Virus genome (UHGV): UHGV-0072754
Strand: one strand, 5' to 3'
Source of the DNA: a virus
DNA length: 38,035 bases
The notes beneath the pieces are model-generated. The model worked only from the letters and a program-made list of their open reading frames with translations, was not told the origin of the DNA and did no database searches. Shown one piece after another: positions 4,951 through 16,217 of the stretch. How positions within the stretch are numbered: position 1 is the first letter of the stretch; the number at the start of each line of letters is the position of its first letter. Made by a program: the position numbers and the translations under genes.

Positions 4951-5877
4951 ATGAGCCTGTTGATGCCATCCCGGCCGATAGTGATAAACCCTGACCTTGC
5001 ATACAGCATTGGCCTGAACGAGGCCATTGCGTTGCAGCAGGTTAACTACTGGCTTAAAGAAACCACCTCCGGACTGGAGCGTGACGGCGTGCGCTGGATT
5101 TACAACACCAACGAGCAGTGGCTGGAGCAGTTCCCGTTCTGGTCTGAGTCTACGCTGAAGCGCACATTCACCCGCCTGAAGCAGCTCGGCGTGCTCAAAG
5201 TTGAGCAGCTGAACAAGTCTCAGCGCGACATGACGAACTACTACACGATCAACTACGAAAGCGAGCTTTTAGATGAGCTCAAAGTGACCAAATCGAAGAG
5301 TTCAAAATGCACTCTTCCATCAGGTCAAAATGAACCGATGGAAGAGGTCAAAGTGGAACGCTCCATCGGTTCAAAACGAACCGCTCTCATCAGGTCAAAT
5401 TGCACTGATGTTCTTACAGAGAATACAACAGAGAATACTACAGATATTAAAAACCCTATTTGTCCGGTTGCGCCGCAACCAGACGGTGATGTGTTGATCA
5501 CCGATCAGGCTAAACAGGTTTTAACCCATCTGAACCAGGTGACCAGTTCGCGTTATCAGGTTTCAACAACCTCGCTGCAAAATATTCGTGCCCGAATCGG
5601 GGAGGGCTACACCGTTGAAGAATTGTCGCTGGTGGTGGACTACTGCAACGCCAAGTGGAGCGAAGACCTGACGATGGCGACCTACCTTCGACCACAGACG
5701 CTTTTCCAGCCGTCCAAGTTCCCTGGCTACCTGAAGTCAGCGAACAGTTGGGCCAAAGCTGGGCGACCTCCTCGCGTAAACGGAGAGTGGGCCCGAGAGG
5801 ATGGGGTTTTCCGCTCCAGTTTCCAGAACACTGACTACAGCAAAGTCCCGGCAGGCTTCAGAGGAGCGAACTCATGA
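4951..5877 (+). CDS. Replication initiator, lambda O-like (308 aa)
   Basis: AAGGA SD; position after the cII-like gene; iteron array lies inside the linker-coding region as in lambda O; conserved-looking C-terminal domain. Confidence 0.7.
   Translation: MSLLMPSRPIVINPDLAYSIGLNEAIALQQVNYWLKETTSGLERDGVRWIYNTNEQWLEQFPFWSESTLKRTFTRLKQLGVLKVEQLNKSQRDMTNYYTINYESELLDELKVTKSKSSKCTLPSGQNEPMEEVKVERSIGSKRTALIRSNCTDVLTENTTENTTDIKNPICPVAPQPDGDVLITDQAKQVLTHLNQVTSSRYQVSTTSLQNIRARIGEGYTVEELSLVVDYCNAKWSEDLTMATYLRPQTLFQPSKFPGYLKSANSWAKAGRPPRVNGEWAREDGVFRSSFQNTDYSKVPAGFRGANS
5297..5462. repeat. Candidate replication origin: 4-5 iterons plus adjacent AT-rich segment inside the O-like gene
   Basis: Repeats of ~GGT(T)CAAAAYGMAC with inverted symmetry (CATCAGGTCAAAATGAACCGATG 5319-5341, GGTTCAAAACGAACC 5368-5382, CATCAGGTCAAATTGCACTGATG 5388-5410) followed by cagagaatacaacagagaatactacagatattaaaaa. 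Confidence 0.55.
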
Positions 5878-6368
5878 GCCTTCTGAAAGATATTCAAATT
5901 TTCATCGCTGAAAACCCTGGGTTAACTAACAAACAGATCGCAGCATCAATGCCTCAATACCGACTTCATGCTGTTCAGCGCGGTGTATGCCATCTGGTCA
6001 AATTGAATCGCGCAACACGGCAGCATAACGGTAAGTGCTACCAGTATTTTGCCAAAGCGCCGGGAGGTGACGTTAGCGAGGGGCGTTCTGCACTGAAAAT
6101 TAACCGGGCAGATACACCAGCTGTATCGGAACAGGAAGAAGCGCCGAATCCAGCTGTAACCAGGATGATGGATAAGGCTAAAGGCCTGTTTGAAAAAGGG
6201 CTCTACCAGCGTGCGGCCACAGTTTTGATGGATGCCTTCAATCGCTCAAAAGACGAAGAGCAGCGAATGAAGATACTCATTGAGCGCCAGCGTTGTCTGC
6301 GCATGTCCCCGAAAGTTAAAGCGCCAACTGATGCATGGTGTCTGGCAGGTCAGGGGAGGAATATCTAA
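5874..6368 (+). CDS. Hypothetical replication-module protein in the lambda P position (164 aa)
   Basis: ATGA overlap with the O-like gene; no helicase-loader motif recognised. Confidence 0.4.
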   Translation: MSLLKDIQIFIAENPGLTNKQIAASMPQYRLHAVQRGVCHLVKLNRATRQHNGKCYQYFAKAPGGDVSEGRSALKINRADTPAVSEQEEAPNPAVTRMMDKAKGLFEKGLYQRAATVLMDAFNRSKDEEQRMKILIERQRCLRMSPKVKAPTDAWCLAGQGRNI

Positions 6369-7027
6369 TGAAATACTCTCTGATTTACGCAGACCCAGCC
6401 TGGGAATACGGCAACACCGTCAGCAACGGCGCGGCTACTAATCACTACGGCACAATGAAGCTGGTCGACATGAAGCGTCTTCCGGTCTGGGACCTTGCTG
6501 CTGACGATGCTGTTTTGGCTATGTGGTTCACCGGCACGCATACCCGCGAAGCGATTGAACTGGCTGAAGCATGGGGCTTTAAGGTCCGCACTATGAAGGG
6601 ATTCACCTGGGTGAAGCTCAACCAGCTCGCAGAGCAGCACATCAACAAAGCACTTCAGGCTGGTGGAGTAGAGGACTTTTACGACTTCCTCGACCTGCTT
6701 AACGAGCAGACCCGCATGAACGGCGGAAACTACACCCGAGCCAATACAGAAGACCTGCTTATAGCCACCAGGGGGAATGGACTTGAACGCCAGTGCGCGA
6801 GCATCAAGCAGGTTATCTACAGCCCACTGGGCAAGCACAGCCAGAAGCCAGCAGAGGCGCGCTTCCGCCTGGAGAAGCTTTACGGTGACGTTCCGCGCAT
6901 CGAACTCTTCAGCCGCTGCGGTGCACCAGGATGGCACCACTGGGGTAATCAGAGTGAGTCCGCTGCAGTTGAGTTGATTCCTGGCGTTGCTGTTCCGGTG
7001 GCAGATAACCGGGAGCATGCAGCATGA
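6368..7027 (+). CDS. MT-A70 family DNA N6-adenine methyltransferase (219 aa)
   Basis: IYADPAWEY (DPPW-type catalytic motif) near the N-terminus, HSQKP later; GGAGG SD; TAATG overlap with upstream gene. Confidence 0.75.
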   Translation: MKYSLIYADPAWEYGNTVSNGAATNHYGTMKLVDMKRLPVWDLAADDAVLAMWFTGTHTREAIELAEAWGFKVRTMKGFTWVKLNQLAEQHINKALQAGGVEDFYDFLDLLNEQTRMNGGNYTRANTEDLLIATRGNGLERQCASIKQVIYSPLGKHSQKPAEARFRLEKLYGDVPRIELFSRCGAPGWHHWGNQSESAAVELIPGVAVPVADNREHAA

Positions 7028-7251
7028 AGAAGCTATCAACCGAGCAGGAGAACGCGGTTCGTGACGTTGCCCGTCAATGCTCCGATGCCATTAAGAAAGC
7101 CTTGAAGAAAAAGCCGAAGCCAAGCTGGAACGTCGTTGTACCTCCGATCCTGAAGGAGTACCACGAGAAGGTAAAACCGATGGGCGTAAGTCTGGTGATG
7201 TTCAACAGCGTAATCGGACGCCTGAACGGGCGCTATGGAGTGGAGTCATGA
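7024..7251 (+). CDS. Hypothetical small protein (75 aa)
   Basis: ATGA-coupled between the methylase and RusA genes. Confidence 0.5.
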   Translation: MKKLSTEQENAVRDVARQCSDAIKKALKKKPKPSWNVVVPPILKEYHEKVKPMGVSLVMFNSVIGRLNGRYGVES

Positions 7252-7658
7252 TGAAACTGGTTCTCCCGTTCCCACCGAGCGTAAACACCTACTGGCGAGC
7301 CCCCAATAAGGGGCCGTTGGCAGGACGCCATCTCATCAGTGCTGCTGGCCGCAAATATCAGAGCGCTGCTTGCGCTGCGATTATTGAACAATTACGCCGC
7401 CTGCCTAAACCAACCACAGCGCCAGCGGCGGTTGAGATCATTCTCTATCCACCAGATGCCCGCCGCCGCGATATCGACAATTACAACAAGGCGCTTTTTG
7501 ATGCACTGACACATGCAGGCATCTGGGAGGATGACAGTCAGGTTAAACGAATGCTGGTGGAGTGGGCACCGCAGGTACCTGGCGGGAAGGTTGAAATAAC
7601 GATCGCCAGCTATGTCGAAAATGGTAGGCAAAATAGCAATGCATTGGTACGCGCATGA
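7248..7658 (+). CDS. rusA: RusA-family Holliday junction resolvase
   Basis: PPSVNTYW ... DIDNYNKALFDALTHAGIWEDDSQV, characteristic RusA motifs; nin-region position. Confidence 0.85.
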   Translation: MMKLVLPFPPSVNTYWRAPNKGPLAGRHLISAAGRKYQSAACAAIIEQLRRLPKPTTAPAAVEIILYPPDARRRDIDNYNKALFDALTHAGIWEDDSQVKRMLVEWAPQVPGGKVEITIASYVENGRQNSNALVRA

Positions 7659-7728
7659 GTGTTAGATTAAAAAGTGTCAGCGAAGCGGGAGTGCAGACCC
7701 GCTCGCACTACAACAAGTGGAGAAACAT

Positions 7729-8523
7729 ATGAATCAGTTATTCGTAATTGATGGCGTTTCCGTACGCCGTGATTTTGATGGTCGTTACTGCCTGAATGAT
7801 TTGCATCGTGCGGCGGGAGGTGAAAAACGTCACCAGCCTTCCAACTGGTCCTGTCTTACCCAAACGCAAGAACTCATCGCTGAAATTTCGAGCGCTCCTG
7901 GAATTACAGGAGCGGCCCCGTTGGTCACCCTTACTGGTGGTGTTAACCAGGGGACATTCGTCTGCAAGGAGTTGGTTTATTCCTATGCAATGTGGATCAG
8001 CCCGAAATTTAACCTCAAAGTCATCAGAACGTTCGATGCCGTACAGAACCCTGCATCCAATGCGCCGACATCCGACAAAATTCAGGCTGGCGTGATCCTG
8101 CTTGAATCGGCGGCGAAAATGCTGAACCTCTCAAACTCTTCAAGGCTCGGTGCTTATCAAAAACTCCAGCAGGTAGCTGGTCTTCCAGATCTGATGCCGC
8201 ATTACGCGATCGATGCACCTGCCGGTGCGCAGGATGGGTCCAGCCGTCCCACACAATCACTCAGCGCTCTGCTTAAAGCAAAAAACATCCGCATCACCGC
8301 CAATCAGGTTTATCACATGATGTCCCGCTTTGGGATTGTGGAACAAAAAGAGCGAAACAGTCGGTCTGGAGTGAATGGTGTTAAAAAGTTCTGGTCACTT
8401 ACTGCCAAAGGCTGCATGTATGGCAAGAACATCACCAGTCCTGCGAACCCGCGAGAAACTCAGCCTCATTTCTTTGAGTCGAAGTTTGCGGAGCTTCTTA
8501 AAATAATCGACATCGTAGCCTGA
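7729..8523 (+). CDS. KilA-N domain protein with antirepressor-like C-terminal region (264 aa)
   Basis: N-terminal KilA-N signature (VRRDFDGRYCLNDLHRAAGG ... GTFVCKELVYSYAMWISPKF); GGAG SD before ATG 7729 (track start 7717 is GTG); hairpin GCGGG...CCCGC upstream. Confidence 0.75.
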   Translation: MNQLFVIDGVSVRRDFDGRYCLNDLHRAAGGEKRHQPSNWSCLTQTQELIAEISSAPGITGAAPLVTLTGGVNQGTFVCKELVYSYAMWISPKFNLKVIRTFDAVQNPASNAPTSDKIQAGVILLESAAKMLNLSNSSRLGAYQKLQQVAGLPDLMPHYAIDAPAGAQDGSSRPTQSLSALLKAKNIRITANQVYHMMSRFGIVEQKERNSRSGVNGVKKFWSLTAKGCMYGKNITSPANPRETQPHFFESKFAELLKIIDIVA

Positions 8524-8530
8524 GGTAACA

Positions 8531-9520
8531 GTGAGAGCATTACTGACACCTGAAGTTGCACCAATGTCCGGGGTGGTACTGTTTCGCCCCGGAAACGAAC
8601 TGCTGTGGTTGTTTCGCCGTGGCAGGGTGGTGATTGAAACGCCTTCCGAAGCAATCAAGCACCTGCCATCTGGACTGATTCCTGAAGCCCACCAGCCACT
8701 GACAGATGATGTCAGTGTGCAGGAGCTTTTCCTGAATGAGAGAGTTATTCAGCGTGCTGGTGGACTGAGTGGCCTTGATGCCTGGCTGGAACGTAAATTC
8801 GAATGTCAGTGGCCGCACAACGAATGGCACTCAAAGGACTTTACACTTCTACGCCACGCCCCCGGCAGCATTCGCCTGTGCTGGGGATGTGATAACCAAC
8901 TGCGTGAACAAACTACAGAAAGACTGGCAGGAATTGCCATGCAGAACCTGGTAAAATGGCTGCTCGAAAGGGTGAATATCATGCTGGGTTTCAGCGCTGA
9001 CCACACCCTGACGCTGCCGGAGTTTTGCTGGTGGATGATACGTAACGATCTGGCTGACCTGATTCCTGAATCAGTGGCTAGCCAGGCGCTCCGGATTAAG
9101 CCTGAATCGCACAGTTCAGTGATGCGTGAAAGCGACATTGTTCCGTCATTACCAGCAACTGAAATCCTCCAGGAGAAAGTTAAGAAGATAGTCTCGGTGA
9201 AGGTCGATCCTGAATCACCTGAATCTTTCATGCTGAGGCCAAAGCGCCGTCGCTGGGAGAACGACAAGTACACCCGCTGGGTGAAGTCGCAGCAGTGCAG
9301 TTGCTGCAATAACCCGGCAGACGACCCCCATCACCTGATTGGCCACGGGCAAGGTGGAATGGGTACCAAAGCGCATGACCTGTTTGTGATACCGCTGTGC
9401 AGAGCGCATCACGATGAGTTACACGCTGATCCTGTGGCATTTGAAGCGAAGCACGGCGACCAGTTAACGCTGTTGTTTCGGTTTTTAGATCGTGCGCTGG
9501 CAATCGGCGCACTGGCGTAA
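8531..9520 (+). CDS. DUF968-like nin-region protein with C-terminal Cys/His (HNH-like) motif (329 aa)
   Basis: GTG start with GAGG SD; C-terminus CSCCNNPADDPHHLIGHG...CRAHHDELH; recalled resemblance to DUF968 prophage proteins. Confidence 0.55.
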   Translation: MRALLTPEVAPMSGVVLFRPGNELLWLFRRGRVVIETPSEAIKHLPSGLIPEAHQPLTDDVSVQELFLNERVIQRAGGLSGLDAWLERKFECQWPHNEWHSKDFTLLRHAPGSIRLCWGCDNQLREQTTERLAGIAMQNLVKWLLERVNIMLGFSADHTLTLPEFCWWMIRNDLADLIPESVASQALRIKPESHSSVMRESDIVPSLPATEILQEKVKKIVSVKVDPESPESFMLRPKRRRWENDKYTRWVKSQQCSCCNNPADDPHHLIGHGQGGMGTKAHDLFVIPLCRAHHDELHADPVAFEAKHGDQLTLLFRFLDRALAIGALA

Positions 9521-9533
9521 GTGGAGACGCAGC

Positions 9534-10112
9534 ATGATCAATCCTTCAGAAGTTGGCAAATCGGGCGAGATGGTTCGCCTTCGCACTCTCGAAAGTATCT
9601 GGGTACAGGGTAAGCTCCGTATGTGGGGCCGCTGGTCTTATATCGGTGGTGGCTCTGGCGGAAACATGTTCAACCAGCTGCTGGCATCGGGGAAAATCAC
9701 CAAGACCGCTATCAACGATGCGCTGCGCCGCATGAAGAAATCCGGTATCACCAAACCCGAGCTGGAAGCGTACCTGCAAGAAATTCTCGACAGTAAAAAC
9801 AAAACTGGCCTGACGTTCTGCTCGGACGAAGAGGGGCTTAAGATTGACGGCGTTATTGCGGCAGTGCTGATGAACGAAGAATACCGTGGGCTGTATAGTG
9901 TGATTGTTGATCGTCATCGTCTGCGTAAAAGCAAACTCCAGATGGCTAAAGAGCTTAATTCAAAACACCCCGACTGGACCCTTATTACATGCCGTCGTCG
10001 TATTGATACATGGGTAAGTCTTGCAGAATCGATCATTTACGCACCACTTTGTGACGCGTTTGGCACAAATAGCGACAGATTTAAGTTGCATAGTGAGCAA
10101 GAAAGTGCTTAA
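9534..10112 (+). CDS. Late-gene antitermination protein Q
   Basis: GGAG SD before ATG 9534; motif LRMWGRWSYIGGG recalled from the phage antiterminator Q family; upstream of a terminator-rich leader and the lysis cassette. Confidence 0.7.
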   Translation: MINPSEVGKSGEMVRLRTLESIWVQGKLRMWGRWSYIGGGSGGNMFNQLLASGKITKTAINDALRRMKKSGITKPELEAYLQEILDSKNKTGLTFCSDEEGLKIDGVIAAVLMNEEYRGLYSVIVDRHRLRKSKLQMAKELNSKHPDWTLITCRRRIDTWVSLAESIIYAPLCDAFGTNSDRFKLHSEQESA

Positions 10113-10114
10113 AT
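10086..10114 (+). promoter_or_regulatory. Candidate late promoter (pR'-like) overlapping the Q stop
   Basis: TTGCAT-N17-TTAAAT; alternative weaker candidate TTGACC-N17-GTAACT at 10261-10289. Confidence 0.3.
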
Positions 10115-10164
10115 TGTGGTAGGCTCGGGACAGTAAAGCGTACTGAGCAACAAATCAAAACATA

Positions 10165-10195
10165 AACCCGCCACTGCTGCGGGTTTTTTATTTTA
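10165..10195 (+). terminator. Intrinsic terminator in late leader
   Basis: CCCGC-cactgct-GCGGG followed by TTTTTTATTTT. Confidence 0.65.
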
Positions 10196-10435
10196 AGGGC
10201 TGCCTCCGGGTGGCCTTTTTTGTTTCCCCTCGTTCTGAGAGGACTCATGGCGATGATGTATTGACCGCTAGAATGGATTAGTCGTAACTTATTATTGTGG
10301 TGAATCCTTTCTAAGCGAAAGGGCGTTCCAGTCAACTGCTATCTGCAGGTATGCGCGCGGCTTTGCTGACTTGGGTAGAGTCACCGGGAGGCACCCGGCA
10401 CCATGACAATAACAATACAGTTTCAAATTCCTTGA

Positions 10436-10467
10436 GAGCCTGCCGTAAAAAGCAGGCCTTTTTTTAT
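10436..10467 (+). terminator. Intrinsic terminator in late leader
   Basis: GCCTGC-cgtaaaaa-GCAGGC followed by CTTTTTTTAT. Confidence 0.65.
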
Positions 10468-10618
10468 GAATTTGCAAACTGCTGCTACGCTTGAAATGTG
10501 TGTTGAAGGTAATTGCCTGATGGTTCTCCTGAACCGTTGTGAACCAGCCCGATACTGTCTCACTCAGGTCAGTTAGCAAGACTCACGACTACCTACCTTA
10601 CTTACTAATAGTCACTCA

Positions 10619-10650
10619 TTAGCCCGCCTTCAAAAGCGGGCTTTTTTTAT
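10619..10650 (+). terminator. Intrinsic terminator 45 bp upstream of the holin gene
   Basis: AGCCCGC-cttcaaa-GCGGGCT followed by TTTTTTTAT. Confidence 0.65.
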
Positions 10651-10695
10651 TCCCCTCATCACTGAGAGGATTCACGGCAATAAGAGGGGGACTAG

Positions 10696-11091
10696 ATGTC
10701 CGATCCTGTTTCTGGCACGACAGTAGCGGCTGGTGGTCTGATGGGGGCCAGCATGTTCGGCCTGGCAACAGGCATAGACTACGGTGTGGTGTTTGGCGCA
10801 TTCGCTGGTGCCGTGTTCTACGTCGCTACGGCAGTTAATATCAGCCGCCTTAAGCTGGTGGGCTACTTCATCACCTCATTCATCTTCGGCGTTATCGGCG
10901 CTCCACTGCTTGGCTCTTACTTCTCCAAATGGACGGGGTATAGCGACAGGCCACTCGATGCGCTGGGCGCGGTAATCGTAGCCGCTATTGCTATTAAGCT
11001 GCTGACGTTCGTAAACAGTCAGGATTTGGGTAGCCTGTTTGGAATTCTCTCGCGTTTACGTGGTGGAGGGGCCAGCAATGGTAACAAGTGA
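10696..11091 (+). CDS. Holin-like membrane protein (131 aa)
   Basis: Several hydrophobic helices, Gly/Ala-rich; first gene of lysis cassette. Confidence 0.55.
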   Translation: MSDPVSGTTVAAGGLMGASMFGLATGIDYGVVFGAFAGAVFYVATAVNISRLKLVGYFITSFIFGVIGAPLLGSYFSKWTGYSDRPLDALGAVIVAAIAIKLLTFVNSQDLGSLFGILSRLRGGGASNGNK

Positions 11092-13256: not shown

Positions 13257-13838
13257 ATGGGTCAGAAAATTATTACGTTGTCCGGCGCGGCGACGGATGT
13301 TCTGTATGCGCTGTTTTTCCGTGGCGCGCTTCAGTCTGGTGACCTGCCAGCTAAATCTGGTGCCGCTGAGCTTCGAGAGTTGGGATTCGCTGAAACACGC
13401 CATACCGCGACGGAGTATCAAAAGGAAAATTATTTCACCTTCCTGACTGCTGAAGGGCAGGAGTTTGCCATTAAGCATCTGGTAAATACGCGCTTTGGTG
13501 TGCCAGTGGGTAAGCAGTATTGCAGCGCAATCAAAATTGATGTTGAGCTGGACACGTCAGACGCACAAAAGGTTCTTGACGAATTGGACGACAAAATCCG
13601 AAACAACGATGCATTTAAGGCCATGAAAGACGGATGGCAGCTCGAAAAAAACGGAACGATGATTATTAATAACGGCCAGGTATTCATAAAAGATGCCTTC
13701 ATCGATCCCGAAATTAAGACCAGTGTGAAGCTATCCCCTGAAATGGAAAAAGCTATTTCTGATGCTGTGTCAGCCGAACTTAAAAAGAATCTTAAGCCCG
13801 GTGGCATAATCTGGGATTGCTTACGGCGTGGAATCTGA
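13257..13838 (+). CDS. Hypothetical protein (193 aa), first gene of glycosyltransferase module
   Basis: AAGGAAA SD; no family recognised. Confidence 0.55.
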   Translation: MGQKIITLSGAATDVLYALFFRGALQSGDLPAKSGAAELRELGFAETRHTATEYQKENYFTFLTAEGQEFAIKHLVNTRFGVPVGKQYCSAIKIDVELDTSDAQKVLDELDDKIRNNDAFKAMKDGWQLEKNGTMIINNGQVFIKDAFIDPEIKTSVKLSPEMEKAISDAVSAELKKNLKPGGIIWDCLRRGI

Positions 13839-13849
13839 AGGGAGATTTT

Positions 13850-15307
13850 ATGCAGGTCACTATTAATGGTGTCCCATACGCTCCCGCCAGCGTCGTTTCA
13901 TCACGGATCGGCATTGCAATTTCGACACATCAGCGCACAGACGTATTAAAACGAGCACTCGAACAGCACATGAAGCATCTTCCCGCCAGCGCGCTGGTGG
14001 TGGTGGTCGATGATGGTTCAAAACCTGCAGCTGTAGTTCCCCACGGCGTTCAGCTGCATCGACATGAAACATCACTCGGCATTGTTGCTTCGAAGAACAC
14101 TAGCCTGTCAGCCCTGATGGACGCCGGGTGTGAGCATCTCTTCCTGTGGGACGATGACGCCTGGCCCATCGCTGATAACTGGCACTTGCCTTACATTGAA
14201 TCACCCGAGCCACACCTGGCTTACCAGTTTCTCGATCTGGCTGGCCGCAATAAGTTGAATGACCTTTCGGTGCTTTACCGTGACGATCAGCATGTGGCGT
14301 ATACCGGGCAGCGCGGCGTGATGCTGTATTACCACCGCAGCGCCATCGAGAAGGTGGGCGGATTCGATCCGGTTTATGGTCGCGGCATGTACGAACATAG
14401 TGACCTCGCCCTGCGCATCCATAATGCTGGCCTGACGACATGGGCTTACGGTGATGTGGTCGGTTCAGAAAAGCTGATTCACTCTCTCGATGAGCATGAA
14501 GCAGTGGAGCGTTCGGTACCGAAACCAGACCGGCAGGCGCTGGTGGAACGTAACGTTAAAATCCACAACGAACGGCGCGATACCGGGTTTACTGGTTACG
14601 TTGAATACCGCCAGCAGCGCGACGTGGTTATCACTACGTTACTGACCAGCCAGCCTGACCCTCAGCGCGGCACAAAAATGACGGCCTCGCCTGACATGCT
14701 GAGTAAATGGGCGGCATCGCTGCGTAATTGTGGACGTATCGCGCTGGTGGATGAACTTCAGACGGCCCCGGCAGACGTTGAGCTGTACCGCGTCCCTGAC
14801 GTGAAGATGAATGTCTACTTTCGTCGCTGGTTGCACATCTGGCAGCACCTGCGAGAACACCCTGAATACCGGTTCGTCTGGTGTACCGATGGGACCGATG
14901 TCGAAATGCTTCGCGCACCGTGGGAAGAAATGCAGCCCGGTAATGTTTATGTCGGTTCAGAACCGAAGACATACGCCGACGCATGGGCAAAACAGAATCA
15001 TCCTGAGCGTATCTATCAGGAGTTCATTGAAGCGCACCGCAATAATGTGATGCTTAACGCTGGTCTGCTGGGTGGCACCCGCGCTGATGTAATGGCGTTC
15101 GCTCACGGCATCATCCGTCTTTACTACCGGATCGAGAGTTATCGTTTCTGGAAGAAAGAACAGGCTGGCGCCGCGGTGGGGGATATGATCGCTTTTGGCA
15201 TTGTCTCGCAGTCATTCGCTGACAGGCTGGTCACCGGCCCTCTGGTACATACCGTTTTCAAAACTGATGGTATCGGTAAGGAGGCCGCATGGTGGAAACA
15301 CAAGTGA
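13850..15307 (+). CDS. Glycosyltransferase, GT-A fold (family 2-like) N-domain plus unknown C-terminal domain (485 aa)
   Basis: GAAGGGAGA SD before ATG 13850; motifs VVVVDDGS, FLWDDDAWP (DXD-type), GGFDP...GMYEHSDL characteristic of GT2 enzymes. Confidence 0.65.
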   Translation: MQVTINGVPYAPASVVSSRIGIAISTHQRTDVLKRALEQHMKHLPASALVVVVDDGSKPAAVVPHGVQLHRHETSLGIVASKNTSLSALMDAGCEHLFLWDDDAWPIADNWHLPYIESPEPHLAYQFLDLAGRNKLNDLSVLYRDDQHVAYTGQRGVMLYYHRSAIEKVGGFDPVYGRGMYEHSDLALRIHNAGLTTWAYGDVVGSEKLIHSLDEHEAVERSVPKPDRQALVERNVKIHNERRDTGFTGYVEYRQQRDVVITTLLTSQPDPQRGTKMTASPDMLSKWAASLRNCGRIALVDELQTAPADVELYRVPDVKMNVYFRRWLHIWQHLREHPEYRFVWCTDGTDVEMLRAPWEEMQPGNVYVGSEPKTYADAWAKQNHPERIYQEFIEAHRNNVMLNAGLLGGTRADVMAFAHGIIRLYYRIESYRFWKKEQAGAAVGDMIAFGIVSQSFADRLVTGPLVHTVFKTDGIGKEAAWWKHK

Positions 15308-15879
15308 AGTTTATTGTGGTTGGCCATCACTCTCGCATAGGTCATGCGCAACGACTTGCCGCGCAGCTGGATGCTCATCTGCTTATTGATGACGGTAACC
15401 GCGGCGCGAACTGGAATCATCGGCGTGCGCTTGAGTGGGCAGCAGAGCAAACATGCCGGGTAGTGATGTTGGAAGACGACGCGATTCCTGTGCAGGGCTT
15501 CACCGATAAGGTAACTGAATGGCTGGTGCGCTTCCCTGACGACATGCTGAGCTTTTATCTCGGTACCGGCCGACCGCCGCAATATCAGAAAGAGATTGCC
15601 GGAATGCTGGTGGATGCGGATCGCGTCTGTGGTGACCACATCGTATTAAGCAAACTGATACACGGAGTATGTTACAGCCCTCCGCAGGGCAGGCTGGCGC
15701 GCATGCTTAACGCATGGAATAAAACGCTGGCAGCTGATTACGCCGTCGGTGAGGCATTCGGTGGCCGGGTGATTTATCCGTGTTACTCGCTGGTGGACCA
15801 CGCTGACCTCCAGACGGTTGAGCGTCACCCTGACAACGAGCCGAGGACAGAACGCCGCCGCGCATGGAGGCTGGCATGA
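15289..15879 (+). CDS. Hypothetical protein (196 aa), possibly nucleotide-sugar transferase-like
   Basis: AAGGAGG SD; overlaps the end of the GT gene; acidic motif VVMLEDDAIP; ATGA-coupled to HNH gene. Confidence 0.5.
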   Translation: MVETQVKFIVVGHHSRIGHAQRLAAQLDAHLLIDDGNRGANWNHRRALEWAAEQTCRVVMLEDDAIPVQGFTDKVTEWLVRFPDDMLSFYLGTGRPPQYQKEIAGMLVDADRVCGDHIVLSKLIHGVCYSPPQGRLARMLNAWNKTLAADYAVGEAFGGRVIYPCYSLVDHADLQTVERHPDNEPRTERRRAWRLA

Positions 15880-16217
15880 ACAAAGAGCCCCGCGTATATG
15901 GCAGCCGATGGGATAAGGCCCGTCTGCGTTTCCTGCAGCAGCACCCACTATGTGTGATGTGTGAGCAACAGGGGCGCATTACCCCAGCAACGGTGGTTGA
16001 CCATATCGAGCCCCACAAACTTAAAGATGCGCTTAAGTCAGGTAACCCTCTGGCCATATCGAAAGCACAGCACCTGTTCTGGAGTAAAGAGAACTGGCAG
16101 CCACTGTGCAAAGCGCATCATGACTCAACGAAACAGAGAATGGAGAAGAGCGGCGCGGTAATAGGCTGTGATGCCAACGGCTACCCGCTCGATCCTGCGT
16201 CTCACTGGAGCACGTAA
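15876..16217 (+). CDS. HNH endonuclease (packaging-associated)
   Basis: CVMCEQQGRITPATVVDHIEPH...CKAHH HNH motif; immediately upstream of terminase genes as in HK97-like cos phages. Confidence 0.8.
   Translation: MNKEPRVYGSRWDKARLRFLQQHPLCVMCEQQGRITPATVVDHIEPHKLKDALKSGNPLAISKAQHLFWSKENWQPLCKAHHDSTKQRMEKSGAVIGCDANGYPLDPASHWST

Follow-up and report, generated by a model that had tools for sequence, protein, structure and literature searches.

A YdfU/DUF968-family HNH protein encoded between RusA and Q in a lambdoid phage genome

What is the role of a gene that stands directly ahead of a Q-like antiterminator gene and whose product ends in a cluster of cysteines and histidines resembling an HNH nuclease? 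We addressed this question for the open reading frame at positions 8531-9520 (plus strand) of the viral genome UHGV-0072754, a stretch of 38,035 nucleotides that is referred to here as the window. A first-pass annotation, made from the letters of the DNA, had described the product as a DUF968-like protein with a C-terminal HNH-like cluster next to Q, and had compared it to the nin-region nucleases of the NinG/Rap type. The description is correct but already known, the gene being an ordinary, already annotated member of the widespread prophage DUF968/YdfU family.

The reading frame comprises 329 codons, begins with GTG and ends with TAA at 9518-9520, as given by the ORF listing and its translation. 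A Shine-Dalgarno sequence can be read from the DNA five bases ahead of the GTG:

8522-8525, plus strand: Shine-Dalgarno sequence GAGG, within which the stop of the preceding KilA-N gene (8523) falls

The start at 8531 is supported by the N-terminus MRALLTPE, which is near-invariant across 41 homologues, and by gp45 of phage mEp390, which has the same GTG start. The reading frame, its GTG and its good Shine-Dalgarno sequence therefore stand as first annotated, and so does the C-terminal Cys/His cluster, since the strings quoted for it, CSCCNNPADDPHHLIGHG (residues 256-273) and CRAHHDELH (residues 290-298), are present in the translation exactly as given. The GC content across the gene is unremarkable, and no tRNA genes were found in the window.

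Profile searches left no doubt about the label "DUF968-like". The Pfam family DUF968 (PF06147) matched with 269.3 bits (E 2e-80) against a gathering threshold of 27.8 bits, residues 160-326 covering profile positions 2-171 of 171, and PHROG 96, "HNH endonuclease", matched over the full length (E 1.7e-153). YdfU of the E. coli K-12 Qin prophage, the founding member, is 50% identical (BLASTP, residues 1-329 against 1-349, E 6e-129), and this full-length collinearity includes the N-terminal region that lies outside the Pfam model. Public data already hold proteins that are 95-97% identical, the named ones as "DUF968 domain-containing protein". Among representatives of 50%-identity clusters, searched exhaustively with HMMER, 2161 were relatives at E <= 1e-3, the full-length ones reaching down to ~25% identity, while tblastn placed the family in 266 phage genome records, among them Stx-converting, Klebsiella, Salmonella, Shigella, Pantoea, Edwardsiella and Vibrio phages as well as phage P1. 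The protein matched none of the NCBIfam profiles and none of the PADLOC defence models, and searches of PDB sequences (phmmer and hmmsearch) gave only marginal matches to YbcO and IscB.

In the classification of Jablonska et al. 2017 (PMC5714182), DUF968 and DUF1364/YbcO (PDB 3G27) form group 7 of the His-Me finger superfamily; the same paper recorded RusA, Q and antirepressor genes as neighbours of DUF968 and already reached a hypothesis of the recombination/replication type for this group. Full-text literature searches on DUF968 and on ydfU turned up no work on the function of the enterobacterial proteins. In databases, the N-terminal part of DUF968 also occurs joined to portal, tail-tip J, tail-fibre or glycine-rich domains (P0121, P0123, P0132, P0158 and P0159). 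These "fusions" were dismissed as functional hints, being likely assembly chimeras. Three E. coli entries of 406-526 aa (P0001, P0005 and P0022) contain two DUF968 stretches, which indicates internal duplication.

The window belongs to an HK97-like lambdoid (pro)phage of Enterobacteriaceae. The gene order around DUF968 is MT-A70 methyltransferase, RusA, KilA-N, DUF968, Q-like gene, terminator-like hairpins, and holin and lysis genes; a further HNH gene lies downstream:

6335-7027: MT-A70-type DNA methyltransferase in the early operon (Pfam E 1.4e-24; PADLOC MTase_II E 1.7e-52)
7248-7658, plus strand: RusA Holliday-junction resolvase (Pfam RusA E 1.1e-16)
7717-8523, plus strand: KilA-N antirepressor-like gene, inserted between RusA and DUF968 (Pfam KilA-N E 3.1e-23; PHROG 129)
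9535-10112, plus strand: Q-like antiterminator, DUF1133 type (Pfam DUF1133 E 6.5e-92, Phage_antitermQ E 5e-7; PHROG 753)
10164-10186: terminator-like hairpin, present on both strands
10195-10218: terminator-like hairpin
10438-10457: terminator-like hairpin
10621-10642: terminator-like hairpin
15864-16217: separate small HNH gene of 117 aa (Pfam HNH), just upstream of the terminase genes

With matches to DUF1133, Phage_antitermQ and PHROG 753 ("anti-termination protein Q-like"), the downstream gene is indeed the Q neighbour that had been claimed. Its start is probably the ATG at 9535, 14 nt past the DUF968 stop, with GGAG ahead of it at 9523-9526; the ORF finder had begun it at a GTG at 9492, and the Pfam match begins at residue 15 of that longer ORF. 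The four hairpins lie in the Q-holin intergenic region (10113-10695, ~580 nt), which is presumably the late promoter and tR' region; a scan of 7000-10800 returned 10 terminator-like sites, against 3.8 expected. In relatives, the Q-holin interval contains a reverse-strand gene of 222-339 aa that is absent from the window. At the other end of the segment, the MT-A70 gene overlaps an upstream PerC-like ORF (5874-6368) by 34 nt, and a Klebsiella relative has a Dam-type (MethyltransfD12) methylase in its position. Further downstream, at 13817-15307, there is a 496-aa ORF with a TTG start, for which no Pfam match was obtained at E <= 1e-3; related phages carry the annotation "glycosyltransferase" for the homologous region.

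We quantified the gene order in 80 IMG/VR loci, a sample made up solely of relatives that are 64-97% identical. RusA lies upstream of DUF968 in 75 of the 77 loci with enough flank, and in 78 of 78 the next gene downstream is a Q gene, at a distance of 0-26 nt (146 nt in one locus). The Q genes belong to three families, namely the QuuD/82 type (27 loci), the lambda/YdfT type (31) and the DUF1133 type (20), so that a mosaic junction coincides exactly with the stop codon of DUF968. Between RusA and DUF968, the variable slot is occupied by KilA-N in 48 of 77 loci and by an unrelated pRha/ANT antirepressor in 20, and is empty in 8; in P0089 the KilA-N N-terminus is fused in frame to DUF968. No homologues of NinB, NinG, NinH, YbcO, YbcN or Ref were present within 6 kb on either side in the 80 loci. 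The same gene order is found in Klebsiella and Salmonella prophages, mEp390 and Qin. The DUF968 gene is thus the last gene of the early operon and is stably paired with RusA, in phages that do not have the lambda NinB/NinG pair.

Gp45 of mEp390 (YP_007112462, RefSeq "HNH endonuclease") is 94.5% identical to the window protein, its gene 90% identical in nucleotides, and it likewise lies between RusA and Q; however, mEp390 lacks a KilA-N gene in the RusA-gp45 interval and has a Q of the QuuD/82 rather than the DUF1133 type. YdfU shares with the window protein the three-part architecture, the Cys/His motifs and the position directly upstream of a Q-type gene, ydfT, but has a 20-residue insertion in the linker, and upstream of it the Qin locus has other cargo, RusA having been lost.

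The protein itself divides as follows:

8531-8692, plus strand: N-terminal segment, residues 1-54, poorly modelled (AF2 pLDDT 41-48)
8693-9100, plus strand: compact family-specific domain, residues 55-190
9110-9253, plus strand: linker, residues 194-241, predicted disordered (AF2 pLDDT <50)
9260-9517, plus strand: HNH / His-Me finger nuclease domain, residues 244-329

The C-terminal domain carries the pattern C256-x2-C259-x8-H268 ... H282-D283 ... C290-x2-H293-H294-x3-H298, in which C256, C259, C290 and H293 (Cys in relatives) are the zinc ligands and H268, H282/D283, H294 and H298 the catalytic set. Across 42 close homologues C256, C259, H268, H282, D283, C290, H294 and H298 are invariant, and 31 of 40 diverse full-length sequences (representatives of 50%-identity clusters) retain H-D-H-H. 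Position 293 is Cys in 15 and His in 13 of the 40, an alternation expected for a zinc ligand. An AlphaFold2 model computed from 42 sequences reached block-mean pLDDT values of 74-91 over most of residues 244-329, with a lower value (49) in block 271-280. The metal-binding, nuclease-like (HNH) fold suggested earlier by the Cys/His cluster was recovered as a predicted beta-beta-alpha-metal fold with a complete set of zinc and catalytic residues, including the general-base histidine and the metal-binding residue that mark the His-Me finger/HNH superfamily. Because these residues are invariant in close homologues and H-D-H-H is so widely kept, the domain looks catalytically competent. A Foldseek search of the PDB with this domain gave no significant match. 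By hhalign, its nearest relatives were Gp16 of the S. aureus phage phiNM1 (94%, E 9.5e-8) and YbcO (83%), with Ref of phage P1 at 81%.

Individual representatives depart from this picture in two directions. Seven of the 40 (including P0166, P0190, P0205, P0221 and P0253) have lost the C-terminal zinc ligands and kept H-D-H-H; in them position 259 is T, N or S, and positions 290 and 293 are not Cys/His. Conversely, P0181, P0202 and P0269 have kept the zinc sites and lost the catalytic histidines. The family is thus split into forms without zinc ligands that look active and forms with bound zinc that look inactive.

Upstream of the linker, residues 1-54 contain two short predicted strands and the conserved residues G14 and G48. 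Residues 55-190 were modelled with a pLDDT of ~90 in the full AF2 model and, when modelled as a separate domain, with a pLDDT of 89.4 and a pTM of 0.82; the model consists of a beta-hairpin (104-109, 112-117) followed by a helix (118-124). Here, a putative second zinc site is formed by C92, H100 (Cys in relatives), C117 and C120 (His in relatives). Cys stands at 92 in 39 of 40 sequences and at 117 in the same number; at position 100, 20 sequences have Cys and 18 His, at position 120, 27 have His and 12 Cys, and the combinations at 92/100/117/120 are CCCH (20 sequences), CHCC (11) and CHCH (7). D121, directly after C120, is retained by 36 of the 40 sequences. With one pair of ligands ahead of strand 1 and the other where strand 2 meets the helix, the site has the layout of zinc-containing HNH domains, and the best structural neighbours of residues 55-190 were HNH domains, although the matches were weak. 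At 109 and 125, where the catalytic histidines would fall, there is no conservation. When the N-terminal and C-terminal domains were compared with hhalign, internal duplication was not significant (probability <1% at both alignment depths); the best-scoring register sets C117/C120/D121 on C290/H293/H294. The reading of this domain as a degenerate HNH accordingly draws on fold and ligand pattern only, and on these grounds we consider it rather probable that residues 55-190 are a degenerate, non-catalytic HNH-like zinc module.

The linker is conserved in its C-terminal half, where the motif VDPExPxxFMxRPK(RRRW) is found. VDPExPxxFMxRPK is as conserved as the nuclease domain, P237 and K238 being present in 93-95% of relatives (40 representatives of 50%-identity clusters). 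An Orf/NinB-like N-terminus, as published for Gram-positive relatives, was considered for the window protein and rejected, there being no similarity to NinB; those "DUF968" proteins are Orf-like domains fused to an HNH domain (Curtis et al. 2014, PMC4118853).

Which characterised protein does the window protein resemble most? The C-terminal HNH of phiNM1 Gp16 (Pfam HNHc_6) is homologous, and its residues C145xxC148, H157, C181xxH184, H185 and H189 have identical spacing (CxxC-x8-H ... CxxHH-x3-H); Gp16 also scores above the DUF968 cutoff of 27.8 bits, with 29.1 bits. Both proteins are encoded by early genes among replication and recombination genes, and the phiNM1 early region encodes RusA as well. 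They differ at the N-terminus, which in Gp16 is NinB/Orf-like, whereas the window protein has no NinB similarity there and instead has the second zinc site. HNHc_6 (PF16784, the family of Gp16 and phiETA Orf20) gave a borderline match: the whole window protein scored 23.9 bits and its C-terminal fragment 26.7, against a threshold of 26.6, and only profile positions 123-175 of 204 were covered; the NinB/Orf-like N-terminal domain of the HNHc_6 type is absent. Gp16 is a nickase that binds RecA, is stimulated by it and promotes phage replication (NAR 2026, PMC12817073). Mutation of the residue equivalent to H268 did not relieve its toxicity (PMC12817073), which suggests that the chemistry of this branch is not fully canonical.

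P1 Ref (PDB 3PLW), of 186 aa, is the nearest solved structure. Its HNH nuclease activity depends on RecA, and its core is preceded by a basic, disordered segment that binds DNA (PMC4330346); the linker of the window protein is likewise predicted to be disordered and ends in a basic motif. Ref has no folded N-terminal domain, however, its genomic context in P1 is different, and the N-terminal part of the window protein is unrelated to the Ref N-terminus. Membership in the Ref family RecA_dep_nuc (PF16786) was considered and set aside on the Pfam threshold: the C-terminal domain alone scored 16.9 bits (E 0.0073) against 26.9, Ref itself scoring 172.7. YbcO of DLP12 and phage 82 (PDB 3G27; PF07102, formerly DUF1364) is a stand-alone domain of 96 aa without the first CxxC, the N-terminal domain or the linker.

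The comparison with lambda NinG/Rap (PF05766) fared less well. NinG/Rap likewise belongs to the His-Me finger superfamily and is encoded in the nin region upstream of Q, but it falls in His-Me group 24 and DUF968 in group 7. The window protein has no Pfam match to the NinG/Rap family, hhalign gave 5.8% over 13 residues around the CxxC, and NinG and DUF968 never occurred together in the 80 loci. Of the earlier reading as a NinG/Rap-like HNH nuclease of the nin region, then, the HNH domain stands and the NinG/Rap family does not.

P1 also encodes a full-length homologue of the window protein, PdcB (NC_005856, 88859-89902; 27% identity, E 4e-37), in addition to the related stand-alone HNH protein Ref. 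The pdcB gene lies directly upstream of the late activator gene lpa, much as YdfU-type genes lie before Q, and was nonessential in published screens. In PdcB both zinc sites are kept, but H268, H294 and H298 are replaced by Y, Q and E, so that, to judge from its residues, it is probably catalytically dead. Without these histidines, at least some members of the family would act without catalysis.

Computation establishes the gene, its family membership, its fold, its conserved residues and its synteny; activity, substrate and any dependence on RecA we infer. By a modest margin over even odds, we take the protein to be an accessory metal-dependent DNA nickase or nuclease that acts on recombination or replication intermediates alongside RusA. 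The YdfU-type protein would be made in the early-right ("nin") operon, just before Q. Its residues 55-190, a putative zinc-binding, HNH-like module without catalytic residues, may recognise a DNA structure or a partner, and the flexible linker (194-241), ending in the conserved basic motif RPKRRRW, would lead to the zinc-stabilised HNH domain (244-329), which is expected to nick or cut DNA in a reaction dependent on divalent metal. H268 would serve as the general base, and H298 with H294 and D283 would hold the catalytic metal. The likely substrates are intermediates of recombination or replication, possibly RecA-bound DNA or D-loops, rather than a specific sequence, and the protein would have an accessory function alongside RusA, the resolvase encoded nearby, while phage DNA is replicated and recombined. 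Guidance by RecA is a specific possibility suggested by Ref and Gp16, and a rather unlikely one; RecA dependence cannot be transferred to the window protein, because its match to Ref is below threshold and its N-terminal part is unrelated to the N-termini of Ref and Gp16. The linkage to RusA, for its part, may reflect only the module structure of lambdoid phages.

Several other roles were weighed against the accessory nuclease. The characterised protein closest in sequence, Gp16, is inhibitory to host growth, causes nucleoid condensation and suppresses replication in the host (PMC12817073), and Ref is described in PMC4713147 as enhancing ciprofloxacin lethality in lysogens; since the HNH site of the window protein is intact, it might similarly act early to favour the phage, by damaging or condensing the DNA of the host or by attacking competing mobile elements, and not as a helper in recombination. 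We consider this unlikely: PADLOC yields no defence match, the linkage is tightly to RusA and not to defence or anti-defence islands, and the apparently intact gene of cryptic prophages, Qin for example, speaks against strong toxicity. Still less probable is a free-standing, selfish HNH gene of the homing type that inserted between rusA and Q and spreads by cutting genomes without it. HNH genes are common mobile elements in phages, rusA occurs near Q without DUF968 in some lambdoid prophages (e.g. rusA-ylcG-quuD in DLP12), and the three Q families point to a recombination hot spot at the 3' end of DUF968. Known HNH homing enzymes, however, combine an N-terminal HNH with NUMOD or HTH modules, none of which was detected here; divergence to 25-30% identity with length and position kept looks like vertical maintenance, and catalytically dead full-length members such as P1 PdcB persist.

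A further candidate role is that of a non-catalytic zinc-finger factor, a DNA- or protein-binding protein, for example a regulator of late expression, in which the HNH fold is only a scaffold. PdcB, P0181, P0202 and P0269 have lost the catalytic histidines and kept both zinc sites, the gene always directly precedes a late regulator (Q in 78 of 78 loci, lpa in P1), zinc-finger residues matter more than the catalytic histidines for the Gp16 phenotype (PMC12817073), and one family member has been annotated as a transcriptional regulator (PMC5714182). On the other hand, the full H-D-H-H set in the window protein and in 31 of 40 representatives implies selection for catalysis, and any last gene of the nin region will adjoin Q, so that we regard this role, like homing, as improbable. 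A packaging role at cos, in which the protein would assist terminase like HK97 gp74, is effectively refuted. The window phage is HK97-like, and in phages of this kind terminase requires a partner HNH protein (cited as background in PMC12817073), but the 117-aa HNH protein encoded at 15864-16217 beside the terminase genes is the expected packaging HNH of the gp74 type and is distinct from the DUF968 protein; moreover, the DUF968 gene lies ~7 kb away in the early operon, and the family also occurs in phages with other packaging types, e.g. P1 and Stx phages.

With the accessory nickase or nuclease as the preferred reading, the present analysis makes modest additions to what was known, namely Ref as the nearest solved structure, the homology to Gp16, a probable second, degenerate HNH-like zinc module and a quantified RusA-DUF968-Q synteny. 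Annotation as a YdfU/DUF968 HNH-family protein is secure, and the label NinG should go. The direct value of this is small; the family is very common and yet still carries a y-gene name. A bolder and doubtful proposal is that these proteins are tandem pseudo-HNH/HNH enzymes, in which the dead, zinc-bound N-terminal domain, together with the linker motif, would bring the active C-terminal HNH onto RecA-bound or branched DNA, forming with RusA a two-enzyme module that replaces lambda NinB/NinG. If this were true, many enterobacterial prophages would carry a module that combines nicking of D-loops or branches with junction resolution. A concrete lead for the YdfU-type proteins comes from P1 Ref and phiNM1 Gp16, two related HNH proteins that act together with RecA.
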